Of a stretch of DNA of 64,000 nucleotides, positions 30,192-43,586 are shown one piece after another. The stretch is from an uncultured Methanolobus sp. Lineage in GTDB: Archaea > Halobacteriota > Methanosarcinia > Methanosarcinales > Methanosarcinaceae. Position 1 is the stretch's first letter, and each line of letters begins with the position of its first letter. The DNA lies in assembly GCA_963675495.1 (NCBI GenBank), contig OY776215.1, positions 352,001 to 416,000 on the forward strand, read 5' to 3'. A program made the position numbers and the translations under genes. The notes under the pieces were generated by a model. The model was not told the origin of the DNA and did not search any database. It saw only the letters and a program-made list of their open reading frames with translations.

Positions 30192-30809
30192 TTGGAAAGA
30201 GAACTCTTATTCAGTATAATGATCATTGCAGTCGTAGCTCTTTTGATCGGAGGTGGAACCTACGCATATTTCAGTGATACTGAAAGCAGCGAAGATAATA
30301 CCATCACAGCAGGTACACTGGACCTAAGTGTTGATGATGAAAATCCCTGGACAAGCACCAAGCTCACGGTAACTAATGCAATACCTGGTTCAAGTGGCTC
30401 CGTCACCATGACATTAAAAAATGAAGGGAGCGCAGACGGCCTCAGCCTGACCGTTAATATTACTAATGTCGCTGATGGACCAGGAACCACACCCGAATCA
30501 GAACCTACACCAGATAATGGTGAACTTAGTCAAAATACGGACATAGTATTGTGGGAGGACACTAATTATGATGGGGTAATAGATGAGGGTGAGGATGAAA
30601 TCTATAACAATACCCTCAGTGCTGCTACCACAGGTCCATGGGAGATCGGCGCTCTTGCCGCTGGTGCTACCAATTATGTCAGTTTATCCTATGAGATCGA
30701 TGAAACAGTTGGAAATGAGATACAGGGAGATAACTGCAGCTTTAACATCGTATACGTTCTTAGCCAAAACTTAATCAGATCAAAGATTGCAGTTCCGATC
30801 ATGCCATAA
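30192..30809 (+). CDS. TasA/camelysin-like protein with SipW-type signal peptide (duplicate of 32201-32785; C-terminus runs into the permease relic)
   Basis: TTG start after GGAGG; GGGTYAYFSDTE, GTLDL, PG.SG, N.G, NEIQGD. Confidence 0.85.
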   Translation: MERELLFSIMIIAVVALLIGGGTYAYFSDTESSEDNTITAGTLDLSVDDENPWTSTKLTVTNAIPGSSGSVTMTLKNEGSADGLSLTVNITNVADGPGTTPESEPTPDNGELSQNTDIVLWEDTNYDGVIDEGEDEIYNNTLSAATTGPWEIGALAAGATNYVSLSYEIDETVGNEIQGDNCSFNIVYVLSQNLIRSKIAVPIMP

Positions 30810-31708
30810 AGTGCCGTTGTCAGACCACCCAATACAGGTGCAGGAATAGAGGCCAGCAGGCTGGAGAATTTGGGGATTAGCGAGAGCAGTATTAGAATAA
30901 CTGCACCGATTAGCACAAGCTGGACACTTGATATTTTTGTAAGGTCCACAAGACCGATGCTCTCTGAATAGCTGGTTGTACCACAGGCAACAAATACACC
31001 GGCAATAGAACAGGAAAGACCTTCCGAACCAATACCACGGTTTATCTTCTTATTATCTATGGGAAGGTCTGTTATCGTTGATATGGCATGGTAGTCACCT
31101 ACACTTTCTATAATGCTCACCATGAAGGCAAAAATAATTATGATTATGGGGCTGATGTCAAATACCGGAAATCCCCATGGAAACAATTTAGGAAGGATCA
31201 AAAGTGGAAGGCTTTTCACAAGCCTGAAATCAACCATTCCAAATTCGATACTCAGGATGTAACCTACCAATACACCCGCAATTACCGACATGGTGTTGAA
31301 AGTACCTTTTAGAGAGAAAACCATAAGCATGATGGTTATACCCTTTACAAGAGGTGAGAAAAGGTTTTTCAGTTTACCGATGAGTCCTAAAGCCCCCTGT
31401 TAGCCTTTCGATGATACCACCTACGGTCAAAGCACCTTCCATCGCAGCAAGCCCAATACCCGAGCTTATGGAGATAAGAGCGGGAATGAAAGCAAAACGT
31501 GATCCCTGTACTATCGGGAACTTAGAACAATGAAGGTCTGCAAAAGAGTGGCAATAGTCATTGCCAGAAGAACAGACTGCATCAGCAGTGCAATATCTGA
31601 AAGTTGAAGACTTATGGCAGAACCAACCACAAGAGGAACTATGATGGTTGCACCGAACATTGCCAGCACATGCTGAAATCCTAAAACAATTCGTTTCATA
31701 TAAATCAC
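30790..31708 (-). pseudogene. NCS2 uracil/xanthine permease fragment, copy 2
   Basis: QHVLAMFGAT, ESVGDY, TTSYSESIG, PVLGG; frameshifts and internal deletion. Confidence 0.85.
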
Positions 31709-32200
31709 CAGGATATTCGTGTCAGTAAATATTAGAATTTACTAGAATTCAATTCTAAAAAAACTATTTTGACCAACCTGGATATAGTTGCTGGATTTTT
31801 TGAAACGAACGTTACAAAATAAGCTGATGCACAAATAACAATTAATTTTCAATGATAATAATTCCAGACACTTCAGTTAAAATTAAGATATAGCTCTTAA
31901 AAATCGAATGCATGCATTTTTAGAATTAAACTACATGATTTCGAAATTTTTATTTTTAATTTATTATGCAACATTTTAGTTAAATATATATATAATAACA
32001 AAAATACATTATTAAAATAATATTAATTATAATAATATTAAACAATTGCACAATTATCATACTTGGAAAGGAACCATCACTATAGGTTAACACCCATAAG
32101 ATATGAATTCATATCATGAATGATTTAGCCTCGAATTTACAACCCTATTTCCAACAAAAATGTATGTCCATAATAATTGTGAAATATTGGAGGAAAAATA

Positions 32201-32785
32201 TTGGACAGAAAACTCTTATTCAGTATAATGACTATTGCAGTCGTAGCTCTTTTGATCGGAGGTGGAACCTACGCATATTTCAGTGATACTGAAAGCAGCG
32301 AAGATAATACCATCACAGCAGGTACACTGGACCTAAGTGTTGATGATGAAAATCCCTGGACAAGCACCAAGCTCACGGTAACTAATGCAATACCTGGTTC
32401 AAGTGGCTCCGTCACTATGACATTAGAAAATGAAGGGAGCGCAGACGGCCTCAGCCTGACTCTTGATGTTACTGATATCGCTGATGGACCAGGAACCACA
32501 CCCGAATCGGAACCCACATCAGATAATGGTGAACTTAGTCAAAACACGGACATAGTATTGTGGGAGGACACTAATTATGATGGGGTAATAGATGAGGGTG
32601 AGGATGAAATCTATAACAATACCCTCAGTGCTACTGCTACCAACGGTCCATGGGAAATCGGTCCACTTGCCGCTGGTGCCACCAACTATGTCGGATTATA
32701 TTATGAGATCGATGAAACAGTTGGAAATGAGATCCAGGGAGATAACTGCAGCTTTAACATCGTATACGTCCTTAGCCAATATTAA
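32201..32785 (+). CDS. tasA: TasA-family major subunit candidate
   Basis: SipW-dependent signal (GGGTYA|YFSDTE), GTLDL, PGSSG, ENEGS, NEIQGD..FNIVYVLSQ; immediately upstream of sipW. Confidence 0.85.
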   Translation: MDRKLLFSIMTIAVVALLIGGGTYAYFSDTESSEDNTITAGTLDLSVDDENPWTSTKLTVTNAIPGSSGSVTMTLENEGSADGLSLTLDVTDIADGPGTTPESEPTSDNGELSQNTDIVLWEDTNYDGVIDEGEDEIYNNTLSATATNGPWEIGPLAAGATNYVGLYYEIDETVGNEIQGDNCSFNIVYVLSQY

Positions 32786-32854
32786 GAATAATTAATAGTG
32801 ATGGTGATGAGCCTCCTATTAATTCCGTTTTTTAAGGGAAAAAAGGAATGTGAG

Positions 32855-41547: not shown

Positions 41548-41960
41548 CTAATCTGGATATAGTTTCTGGAATTCAGTAAATGAATGTTTCGAAATAATAA
41601 AATGAACAAATGAGAGTTCATACCATTTGAAAGAACACACACATTTCAATCAAATATGGATATTGATCGAAAAATATCTCACCCATACTTTTAATATTCC
41701 AGTATCTGTATCAGAAAATAATTGATTTGATATTTATGAAATTAATTTAGCAATATTTATATATTATACATGAATATTGAAATTATATTCACAATAAAAT
41801 CGAACAATTGCACAGTAGAATATAATTGGAAGATATATCATTGCATATTATAACCCCAGGGATATGAAAGGTCTCAGGAATAATATGAGCTCTGATCATA
41901 TTTCAGCTTCCAACTAAAAATTATAATGCCTCCAATTGTACACAGGTTTGAGGAAATTCA

Positions 41961-42611
41961 TTGGATAGAAAAATTTTGCTCAGTATAATGACTATTGCGG
42001 TTGTAGCTCTTTTTATGGGAAGTGGAACCTACGCATATTTCAGTGACACTGATACTTCAAGCGATAATGCTTTTGAAGCAGGGATACTCAACCTTGCAGT
42101 TGAAGGAAACGATGTCTGTTCTGAATCGATAACGATCTCTAATTTAAAACCAGGAGATTCTGCCATTATTGCAACCTGGAACATCAACAACACAGGAACA
42201 ATAACAGGGAACCTCAGCATAAAGCTTAGTCCAGTGGTGAACAATGAGAACAACTGTTATGAGATGGAAAACGATAGTACTTCTGGTGCCGATGAAGGAG
42301 AATTAGGCCAGAATCTCAAAGTGATCTTCGCCATGGATGCTGATAGCAGCGGAACATGGACCAGTGGCGATTGCTATCTTAGTCCTACACTTGGGATACA
42401 GGAATGGGGAGAATCAAGGGTATACAGCGCATACCTGAACGATTATAGTTCAAAAGAGTGGACAAATGTAAAAACAAGTATGGCAGGCGGGAGTAGTGCT
42501 GGCAAGTTCTCCGTGAGCTACACCCTCCCAGTCGATACTGGGAATGAGGTACAGAGCGACAGTTGTACCTTTGATATTATTTTCACTCTGGATCAGGATC
42601 TGAGCAGCTAA
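41961..42611 (+). CDS. TasA-family protein (divergent paralog)
   Basis: GSGTYAYFSDT, GILNL, NLKPGDS, NTG, NEVQSDSCTFDIIFTL. Confidence 0.85.
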   Translation: MDRKILLSIMTIAVVALFMGSGTYAYFSDTDTSSDNAFEAGILNLAVEGNDVCSESITISNLKPGDSAIIATWNINNTGTITGNLSIKLSPVVNNENNCYEMENDSTSGADEGELGQNLKVIFAMDADSSGTWTSGDCYLSPTLGIQEWGESRVYSAYLNDYSSKEWTNVKTSMAGGSSAGKFSVSYTLPVDTGNEVQSDSCTFDIIFTLDQDLSS

Positions 42612-42929
42612 TACAGAGCATACCTGCACATTTGGAATGCTGATTGAAAAATACCTCACCCATAATTTTAATGTTATACCATCTGACATAGAATGTCCAA
42701 CTTAATATTGTTTTTATTATTATATTAAAATATATATAGTTTAAAAATAATATTAATTTTAAATATAATGATTCTGATCAAACTGGCTCATTGCATCATT
42801 ATTATAATTGGATGGGAAGTATAATTGTGGACTATAAGTCCATGAAGATGATTTAATCTCTAATTGCACCCCAACTTCCAATACAAAAAATGCAATGTAA
42901 TCAATTGTACACAATTTGGAGATAGTCTA

Positions 42930-43586
42930 TTGGAAAGAAAGATCTTGTTCAGTATGATGACTATTGCATTTGTGGCTTTTTTTATTGGGGGCGGAACTTA
43001 CGCATATTATAGTGACGTTGAGAATGCAAGCGATAATACATTTGAATCAGGAACACTGAACTTGCAGGTTGGAGACGTTGATCCATGCACCGAATCAATA
43101 TCTGTTTCCAGCTTAAAACCTGGAGATAGTGGCACCGTAGATTCCTGATTGTTAACTAACATTGGTTCGATAACCGGTAACCTTAGTATCGATGTTTCTA
43201 TAGTAACAAGTAACGAAAATACTCGTTATGAAATGGAGACTGTCGCTGGAGATACTACTGATGTTGGGGGTGAGCTCGAAAATTACCTTAGAGTTGCCTT
43301 CTGGATGGATTAAGATACCAGCGGTACCTGAAATAGTGGAGATTACTATCTTGAAGATGATTCAATAACGATACACTACGTATCATAGGATTTACCAAGA
43401 GAAGCCTTCAACTTCATGAATGATTATGCGTCTGATTCATGGGCAAATGTTCAAACTGGCCTTGGCAACGGAAATATAGGAACTCTAAAAATAGAATATA
43501 TTCTAGTTGATAGTGCCACCATAGACCAGGTACAGAGCGACAGTTGCGTCTTTGACATAACCTTTACCCTTTAACAGCAAGTGTAG
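42930..43586 (+). pseudogene. TasA-family pseudogene
   Basis: One frame, colinear with the TasA domain of 38448-40520, but broken by five in-frame stops (TGA, TAA, TGA, TAG, TAA). Confidence 0.88.

Follow-up and report, generated by a model that had tools for sequence, protein, structure and literature searches.

Described donor-strand fibers and the archaeal locus

In Bacillus subtilis, the tapA-sipW-tasA genes encode the fiber protein TasA (PDB entries 5OF1 and 8AUR), the accessory protein TapA (6HQC), and the signal peptidase SipW. Here, we describe a locus at positions 30192 to 43586 of a 64,000-nucleotide (nt) stretch of DNA from an uncultured Methanolobus sp., the whole of which is referred to below as the window. 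This archaeal locus has the same PF12389 domain, the same SipW-type signal, and, as in B. subtilis, a dedicated SipW-type peptidase. TapA shares only an N-terminal strand motif with TasA, AFHDI in the former matching AFNDI in the latter, and it donates its strand to TasA (PMC10151520; the reports cited here by accession or preprint number were available in part, and statements drawn from them are limited to the portions available). The 1,650-amino-acid (1650-aa) protein of the window is an accessory protein of the same kind, but its core differs from that of TapA and its payloads are of the lectin type. Bacillus has no strandless, membrane-anchored TasA paralogue, in contrast to the window, which encodes such a protein of 281 aa. 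We consider it probable that this locus encodes a cell-anchored TasA-type fiber assembled by donor-strand complementation, and we propose, from its sequence, that the 1650-aa protein is the initiator and tip adhesin and, with the support of a complex model, that the 281-aa protein is an acceptor-only base anchor.

The layout of the locus corresponds almost one to one to that of the haloarchaeal Tat-fimbriae (Tafi), which comprise the tip protein TafC, the adaptor TafE, the shaft subunit TafA, the anchor TafF, and the peptidase TafD (PMC11821415 and PMC12337348). TafD is a dedicated S24/S26 signal peptidase without which, as has been demonstrated, TafA is not processed, and Tafi assembly has been proposed to begin at the tip protein and to finish at the anchor (PMC11821415 and PMC12337348). 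TafC combines an N-terminal donor strand with a laminin-G-like (LamG-like) lectin domain, while in TafF a pilin-like jelly roll follows a signal of the Sec and not the Tat type, and membrane helices lie at the C terminus (PMC11821415); the putative tip and anchor proteins of the window are built alike. As far as the available descriptions go, there are also differences. The Tafi pilins are of the DUF1102 type and are exported by Tat, whereas the window subunits are TasA proper and show no visible twin arginine in their signals; in TafC, LamG is preceded by a pilin-like N domain, whereas in the window protein the strand may run straight into a LamG-like core, which is a lead only; and TafF has three helices, whereas the window anchor has one. 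No counterpart of TafB or TafG (DUF5305) was found among the proteins scanned, the window having been scanned in part. The correspondence is one of architecture, the Taf proteins having been compared by description, and in this sense it supports the view that the locus is a TasA-proper, Sec/SipW-dependent counterpart of a Tafi-type kit. The division of labor between tip, shaft, and anchor is not new, as it has been proposed for Tafi (PMC11821415 and PMC12337348) and may be compared with strand donation by TapA. What is new is a cassette shared between domains of life, a large unnamed family of tip proteins, a family of anchors, and a host of a cultured type with a complete genome.

As in the window, donor-strand fibers, a co-located signal peptidase I, minor subunits, and predicted tips are features of the AbpX and AbpA loci (bioRxiv 10.64898/2026.01.04.697558 and PMC9245690). 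AbpB has been proposed to give the first strand and to bear adhesin domains (PMC9245690), and the anchors predicted in bacteria were joined by AlphaFold 3 via donor-strand complementation in a 2026 preprint that generalizes loci with a subunit, a peptidase, a tip, and an anchor across the TasA superfamily (bioRxiv 10.64898/2026.01.04.697558). Unlike the window proteins, those anchors are cell wall proteins of the SLH or LPXTG kind, and there are ten helices in the AbpX peptidase; the TasA profile built here matches AbpX only weakly (E value, 2e-4). The preliminary description of the window had named Bacillus and Pyrobaculum as precedents for donor-strand polymerization following SipW-type cleavage, of which the donor-strand fibers stand, but Pyrobaculum AbpA is cut by a generic and not by a dedicated signal peptidase (PMC9245690). 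Wang et al. noted TasA homologues in Methanosarcinales in 2022 and left their function open (PMC9245690), and, in the available portion of the AbpX preprint, no archaeal homologue of the TasA cluster is said to have been characterized (bioRxiv 10.64898/2026.01.04.697558). Our literature search, with supplements outside its reach, found no paper linking DUF2341 with TasA; among the papers listed, it also found none joining TasA or SipW with Dehalococcoidia, and the supplements of PMC9245690, PMC11821415, PMC12337348, and the AbpX preprint may list loci from Methanosarcinales or Chloroflexota.

The arrangement is also reminiscent of chaperone-usher pili (FimH/FimA and the PapH terminator), which are linear polymers held together by N-terminal donor strands and in which, as proposed here, the end subunits each lack one interaction element. 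In those pili, the tip adhesin has no strand, and the base subunit has a groove that cannot exchange, so that growth ends. The polarity of the caps is thus reversed with respect to that proposed for the window, where moreover no chaperone, usher, or outer membrane is involved.

The strandless 281-aa protein and the strand-bearing 1650-aa protein

The 281-aa protein comprises a Sec signal (residues 1 to 33, with the cut between AQA and Q), a TasA-fold ectodomain (36 to 176), an acidic linker of ~75 residues that is disordered in the AlphaFold 2 (AF2) model (181 to 253), a membrane helix (254 to 273), and a basic tail, KRRKKKKPF. The mature chain opens with QGSVIDLEL, and PF12389 is covered at positions 43 to 188 only. 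The AF2 model, computed from a 49-row alignment, had block-mean pLDDT values mostly above 90 (78 to 97 across residues 31 to 180), and its best Foldseek matches in the PDB were the TasA entries 5OF2, 5OF1, and 8AUR (E values, 4e-5 to 5e-4; probability, 1.00). When a profile of the anchor was aligned with one of the family of TasA194, the 194-aa TasA-like protein of the locus, hhalign returned 99.4% with an E value of 2e-21, pairing V37-I38-D39-L40 of the anchor with T42-L43-D44-L45 and continuing from there to the end. Since the alignment starts at VIDL/TLDL, the mature anchor is without just the ~14 residues that form the TasA donor strand. The earlier portrayal of this protein as a strandless TasA-like chain that starts at VIDLEL and ends in a transmembrane anchor is thereby borne out.

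Modeling the TasA N-terminal strand together with the anchor had been suggested in the preliminary description, and when this was done the strand was placed in the groove of the 281-aa protein. The anchor ectodomain (residues 34 to 180) and mature TasA194 (residues 26 to 194) were modeled in three runs, which gave ipSAE values of 0.72, 0.69, and 0.72, while the best of three controls reached 0.00; in a benchmark, 58 of 80 solved complexes passed the mark applied to ipSAE, as did 2 of 110 mismatched pairs. Contacts agreed between the runs to at least 94%, and the pLDDT of the partner was at least 78. The confidently predicted interface brings TasA194 residues 26 to 43 against anchor residues 38 to 42, 46 to 57, and 161 to 176, with the pairs 174:29, 172:31, 169:34, and 166:38 (anchor:TasA194) running antiparallel to the last strand of the anchor and the pairs 40:29 and 42:31 lying along its first strand. 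In the model, the donor strand of TasA194 is thus flanked by the first strand of the anchor on one side and by its last strand on the other. This pairing is of the same type as that in TasA filaments, in which solid-state nuclear magnetic resonance showed D31-S41 to be paired with A230-N220 (Roske et al., PMC10151520).

Forty homologues of the anchor, with 36 to 63% identity to it, were recovered from 5.8 billion proteins; most of them are ~480 to 490 aa long and have an extra CARDB-type domain, the closest short ones (P0002 to P0004) being 59 to 63% identical. All 14 homologues that were inspected have a PxQAQ signal and an xPVDLxLGG start, and all end in a hydrophobic helix and a basic tail except for P0016 and P0037, which are truncated. 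Nineteen anchors are encoded in the related loci described below: every one of the 17 with an intact N terminus is strandless and starts with xPVDLxLGG after a Sec-type signal, and 17 of the 19 end in a hydrophobic segment (defined as a Kyte-Doolittle 19-mer of ≥1.6) followed by basic residues, the exceptions being L018, which its contig end truncates, and L024. A stalk, helix, and tail like those of the anchor are also found in a 431-aa DUF11 surface protein encoded at 21823 to 23118 of the window (34% identity over anchor residues 196 to 274; E value, 8e-6), a counterpart of which is held by a genome of the same genus (G039, locus L005). With this likeness, the anchor tail looks host type, while the ectodomain is closest to Chloroflexota proteins.

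The 1650-aa protein is organized in the opposite way. It starts with a signal (residues 1 to 27) and a TasA-like donor strand (LYIDVETSSNNIFGAW, residues 28 to 43), which belong to a conserved N module that extends to about residue 100, and Pfam domains of the DUF2341 (122 to 204, 923 to 1007, and 1289 to 1357) and Laminin_G_3 (1052 to 1210 and 1403 to 1546) families and a conserved C module (1571 to 1649) follow. The Pfam scan detected no PF12389 domain after the strand. When the N-module profile of the tip family was compared with the TasA-family profile, the two matched over the signal and strand only (hhalign, 97.2%; E value, 3.6e-11; columns 7 to 54 versus 9 to 55). The earlier claim of an N-terminal strand followed by DUF2341 and LamG domains is confirmed by these results, and at the level of sequence the designation "strand only," relative to TasA, holds. 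By homology, we propose that the signal is cleaved between TNC and LYID (C27 and L28). The TapA model TIGR04087 did not match the 1650-aa protein, which, judging from the shared strand, would act like TapA without being a member of the TapA family.

In the tip family, the N module consists of the signal, a strand with the consensus SFVDxESSxxNxFQAW, and a WxQTTQxDFxAG motif, and the C module comprises ~100 aa and terminates in ...GRYxQWRAxL...EVRVYxY; neither is covered by a Pfam model. The region between them is variable; it may be absent or exceed 1400 residues. The C-module profile matched 3503 representative proteins at an E value of ≤1e-3, 741 at ≤1e-10, and 165 at ≤1e-30. Among the best 150, the C module lies at the extreme C terminus in 120 and the N module at the start in 80; it is present in 69 of the 101 that have both an initial methionine and a terminal C module, and many of the remainder without it resemble truncated gene calls or multicopy giants. 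Members with an N module are 176 to 1208 aa long (median, 505). In the ESM Atlas model of a minimal member (P0219; pTM, 0.73), residues 41 to 183 resemble parts of LamG/ConA-like folds (TM score, 0.62 to 0.75), which suggests, as a lead only, a single split LamG-like jelly roll that is made up of the N and C modules and takes inserted payloads. Cognate tip and TasA strands were more alike than noncognate ones across 13 genomes (BLOSUM score, 30.5 versus 22.6; permutation P = 0.00025).

The C module also occurs in archaeal proteins of ~700 to 1000 aa (L045 to L054), many with N termini resembling those of type IV pilins (for example, ...SEDAQSTVIG plus a hydrophobic stretch) and often encoded in tandem arrays of two to four genes; to judge from these sequences, the C module is common to a different surface system. 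In one Dehalococcoidia metagenome-assembled genome (MAG; locus L016, positions 8974 to 9792), a single 272-aa open reading frame (ORF) joins a SipW domain to the tip-family C module; the fusion is natural or else an artifact of the assembly or reading frame.

Subunits, locus layout, and distribution of the cassette

PF12389 (TasA/camelysin) has six matches in the genome, all of which fall inside the locus, where it was found in six of the nine proteins scanned against Pfam (31.5 to 60.9 bits; gathering cutoff, 22.5). The SipW-cognate signal of the NCBIfam model TIGR04088 was recognized in five of the nine (31 to 49 bits; cutoff, 19), namely, in copy 1, TasA194, the 690-aa protein, TasA216, and the pseudogene fragment, and neither the 281-aa nor the 1650-aa protein matched this model. 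The preliminary description had placed sipW among TasA-like genes that share a cleavage motif, and the genes were indeed found there, with GTYAYFSD in four of them and the variant GTYAYYSD in the pseudogene. TasA194 has a signal of 25 residues and a donor strand at about residues 26 to 41 (YFSDTESSEDNTITAG). In a profile of 60 of its relatives, Y26-F27-S28-D29 aligns to the mature A-F-N-D of the 8AUR fiber chain, and from this alignment the cut is predicted to lie between GGGTYA and YFSD (A25 and Y26), a position equivalent to A28 of B. subtilis TasA. The gene occupies the first place in the conserved cassette, and of the paralogues TasA194 is likely to be the major shaft subunit.

The sipW product scores 133.1 bits on TIGR02228, the model for archaeal/endoplasmic reticulum-type signal peptidase I (cutoff, 51.85), and its gene is one of two for signal peptidase I in the genome, the other being distant, at 1.75 Mb. 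Residues S59, H99, D117, and D123, which we take to be the catalytic residues of the family, are invariant across 17 aligned sequences. With 119.7 bits, the protein misses the threshold of 190 of NF046067, the Bacillus SipW equivalog, and it is a relative of Bacillus SipW and not an orthologue. Only 12 nt separate tasA194 from sipW and 1 nt separates sipW from the tip gene, while the later genes are spaced by 126 to 413 nt. This tight spacing, the invariant SipW residues, and the linker of the anchor all fit with the fiber mechanism set out below.

Table 1. Features of the probable fiber locus (positions in the window)
Feature	Position	Strand	Basis or content
Tandem duplication of ~2 kb	29074-32779 (copies ~29074-30767 and ~31191-32779)		Permease fragment, upstream region, and tasA
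tasA copy 1	30192-30809 (ORF from 30153)	+	PF12389, E 8.7e-14; TIGR04088, E 8.5e-13
tasA194	32201-32785	+	PF12389; TIGR04088; alignment to 8AUR
sipW	32798-33367	+	TIGR02228
1650-aa strand-bearing protein	33369-38321	+	Pfam domains; N and C modules; hhalign
690-aa TasA fusion	38448-40520	+	PF12389, E 4.7e-10; Big_9, E 6.4e-7; TIGR04088, E 4.3e-9
C-module relic of tip family	40561-40683	+	Profile positions 68-107; internal stops
281-aa strandless TasA-like protein	40702-41547	+	PF12389 positions 43-188 only
tasA216	41961-42611	+	PF12389, E 1.9e-16; TIGR04088, E 1.4e-7
tasA pseudogene	42927-43574	+	Four in-frame stops; identity to TasA domain of 690-aa protein

The proteins of copy 1 and tasA194 are 92% identical, and five families of direct repeats (spacing, 1993 to 2117 nt; 82 to 96% identity) show that the two near-identical tasA genes are due to the ~2-kb tandem duplication, at the junction of which the C-terminal tail of copy 1 was altered, NLIRSKIAVPIMP replacing Y-stop. 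A DDE transposase is encoded near the duplication (28031 to 28807), and the duplicated permease gene is truncated. A second TasA-like type with a SipW signal and strand, TasA216, is ~37% identical to copy 1. The 690-aa protein has both a strand and an acceptor domain, fused to a repeat region of ~380 aa and a Big_9 Ig domain, and is a candidate for a decorated or adaptor subunit; its gene has no counterpart in the related loci examined and stands outside the conserved four-gene core. The pseudogene is full length, keeps one frame over ~215 codons, and is interrupted by stops at 43146 (TGA), 43311 (TAA), 43329 (TGA), and 43386 (TAG); it shares 76% nt identity with the TasA domain of the 690-aa gene over 657 nt with no indel or frameshift. 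Read-through of the pseudogene by pyrrolysine was considered and rejected, as its internal stops are two TGA, one TAA, and one TAG. Directly upstream of the anchor gene lies a degenerate relic of 123 nt, which is the second match to the C-module profile in its own genome and corresponds to the 3′ end of a tip gene (...KYIQWRATLTSTEGNTPMLHEVRLYYHT-stop). That this remnant of a tip gene abuts the anchor gene shows the 690-aa gene to have been inserted into an ancestral tip-anchor junction.

Relatives of the cassette emerged from profile and pattern scans and not from single-protein searching; a single-protein search with the anchor across 201 genomes of the order found no close relative, with weak TasA-type or tail matches in 7. 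A scan for the anchor pattern, using one genome per species, yielded 20 loci, all of them in MAGs of Dehalococcoidia/Chloroflexota, and their synteny was scored with profiles of all four components (tasA, sipW, tip, and anchor). Seven loci have all four genes, in the window order tasA-sipW-tip-anchor in L010 to L014 and L022 and with sipW first in L023. In three (L009, L015, and L025), the tip gene adjoins the anchor gene and the contig ends upstream; one (L016) has tasA, the joint SipW/C-module ORF, and the anchor; three (L019, L021, and L024) have SipW and/or TasA beside the anchor and no tip; and six (L017, L018, L020, and L026 to L028) show the anchor alone within the available sequence. 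A metagenome scan gave two further loci, both with the cassette, which is cut by the contig end in L029 and complete in L030. In the host phylum, the C-module profile matched 35 of 401 sampled genomes and 17 of 121 genera. Of 14 regions around such matches, the four from archaeal genomes of two other families (L041 to L044) have the complete tasA-sipW-tip-anchor cassette, with anchors that lack the strand and end in a helix, and in the other ten the module is carried by other proteins. At other Methanosarcinales loci to which the anchor query led, the ~3.3 kb of sequence available shows a simple tasA-tasA-sipW cluster.

For SipW, TasA194, and the anchor of the window alike, the nearest sequences come from Chloroflexota or from metagenomes. 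In a midpoint-rooted SipW tree, the window gene joins a Dehalococcoidia clade (support, 84/93; identity of at most 52%) and does not group with the SipWs of the other archaeal cassettes or of the simple Methanosarcinales clusters. The distribution is patchy and crosses domains, and we make no claim as to the donor or direction of transfer.

The source genome is a single contig of 2.87 Mb with mcrA and two mtaB genes, which identify the host as a methylotrophic, methanol-using methanogen, the former as had been surmised; a disaggregatase-repeat protein encoded upstream of the locus is in keeping with Methanosarcinales. This protein, which also has CBM96 and is a surface protein, lies in a region (19448 to 27786) that further encodes a chagasin-type peptidase inhibitor, a FIST protein, and a PAS histidine kinase, and these neighbors may be regulators or envelope partners of the fiber locus. 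Downstream (44300 to 47760), an M4 thermolysin-type protease of 703 aa with an FTP propeptide and about ten C-terminal Cys/Pro repeats of the CPPxP type is encoded by a gene that overlaps by 4 nt that of a radical SAM/SPASM protein with a PqqD domain, a pair that looks like a peptide-maturase system with a protease-fused substrate.

Assembly model and alternatives

The assignment of tip and anchor roles made in the preliminary description is upheld by evidence that is computational throughout, namely, the hhalign result, the TasA fold of the anchor, the complex model, and the conserved architectures and gene order. The 1650-aa protein has a strand and no TasA acceptor domain and can therefore be a donor only, and the 281-aa protein has a groove and no strand and can be an acceptor only. 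In a polymer held together by N-terminal donor strands, a strand-only and a groove-only protein can occupy opposite ends only, and the C-terminal membrane helix makes the groove-only protein the base. From the observed gene content, domain limits, and conserved architectures and gene order, together with the modeled strand-in-groove complex, we infer cleavage, polymerization, the order of assembly, the shaft paralogue, and a function in adhesion, as follows. SipW would cut the signals of the TasA-like subunits at the GGGTYA/YFSD site, freeing an N-terminal strand of ~15 residues, and, by homology, would also cut the 1650-aa protein at its TNC/LYID site. The strand of the 1650-aa protein would then occupy the groove of the first TasA subunit, in the manner of TapA in Bacillus and of TafC as proposed, and at the distal end this protein would display its DUF2341 and LamG lectin-type domains. 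Each TasA subunit would hand its own strand to the next, so that the chain extends at the free-strand end until the anchor captures the last free strand, at which point growth would end and the fiber would be rooted in the membrane. The ratio of anchor to subunit would set the length of the fiber, and the groove domain would stand off from the membrane on the acidic linker of ~75 residues or, in longer anchors, on the extra domains.

Several observations weigh against this interpretation. The high score of the complex model may reflect memory of solved TasA fibers (8AUR) and thus likeness rather than binding. That the tip protein has no acceptor groove is read from its sequence and from the ESM Atlas lead; an AF2 model of a minimal 183-aa homologue (L022), built from an 8-row alignment, had a pLDDT of 45 and was not used for fold searches. 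TIGR04088 misses the N terminus of the 1650-aa protein at an E value of ≤1 and matches two of eight tip-family members. The likeness of cognate strands is confounded by kinship, and the window's own tip/TasA pair ranks 12th of 13. Within the host genus, the C-module profile matched none of 14 other sampled genomes, and a search of 24 genomes with the anchor returned one C-tail match only. Finally, the locus is in flux, as seen from the pseudogene, the ~2-kb duplication, and the nearby DDE transposase.

A first alternative, which we regard as rather unlikely, is that strand and groove serve as a tether, with the 1650-aa adhesin docked into the anchor directly or via one or a few TasA spacers, the product being a giant adhesin displayed on the surface and not a long filament. 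The tip strand shares the TasA strand motif and so could fit the anchor groove, and at least 10 of the 20 Chloroflexota loci and all four archaeal cassettes have the tip gene directly beside the anchor gene. However, every complete cassette includes a TasA-like subunit that combines a strand with a groove, of which the window has several paralogues, and the TasA family polymerizes in Bacillus (8AUR). It is also conceivable, if improbable, that the fibers are released into a Bacillus-like matrix and that the 281-aa protein, instead of being a structural base, acts from the membrane as a chaperone or capping factor on the free strands of newly exported subunits, preventing premature polymerization there or setting fiber length. 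B. subtilis TasA fibers are largely matrix associated, with TapA acting catalytically (PMC10151520), and the authors of the Tafi work, in the portion available, also weigh nonfinalized, released chains (PMC11821415). The conserved helix, basic tail, and long stalk, with CARDB-type domains in the ~480-aa relatives, would rather fit a permanent root that spans the envelope, and full insertion of the strand, as modeled, typically makes a very stable interface. That these genes encode secreted camelysin-type proteases or antimicrobial proteins beside unrelated surface proteins, as the name Peptidase_M73 of PF12389 and the M4 metalloprotease 700 nt downstream of the locus might suggest, is hardly credible, given that the solved members 5OF1 and 8AUR are jelly-roll fiber subunits, that the order of the four genes is conserved in two domains of life, that the TasA-like genes and the 1650-aa gene have the strand motif in common, and that the M4 gene lies outside the cassette, with no M4 match in any related locus scanned.

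What is known of how archaea and other cells without a wall root their donor-strand fibers comes from AlphaFold-based proposals alone, and for an anchored TasA-type fiber the locus described here offers a compact model that can be read from sequence and that predicts two defined cleavage sites, a strand-only cap, a groove-only anchor, and a specific strand register in the anchor. The diversity of payloads in the tip family, in which at least 80 of the 150 best clusters carry a TasA-type strand, could be mined for adhesion specificities. In addition, as Dehalococcoidia have the cassette too, one may ask whether genes pass between partners in anaerobic sediments. As a more speculative and doubtful extension, the four genes might constitute a self-contained, horizontally mobile fiber module, used across domains by prokaryotes that have no peptidoglycan wall on which a fiber could be fixed (Dehalococcoidia, methanogens, and other Halobacteriota), in which the anchor-to-subunit ratio sets the length and the insert of the tip sets the specificity. 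If this were true, such fibers could, in anaerobic consortia, bring about partner-specific aggregation of methanogens with syntrophic or dehalogenating bacteria that have the same module.

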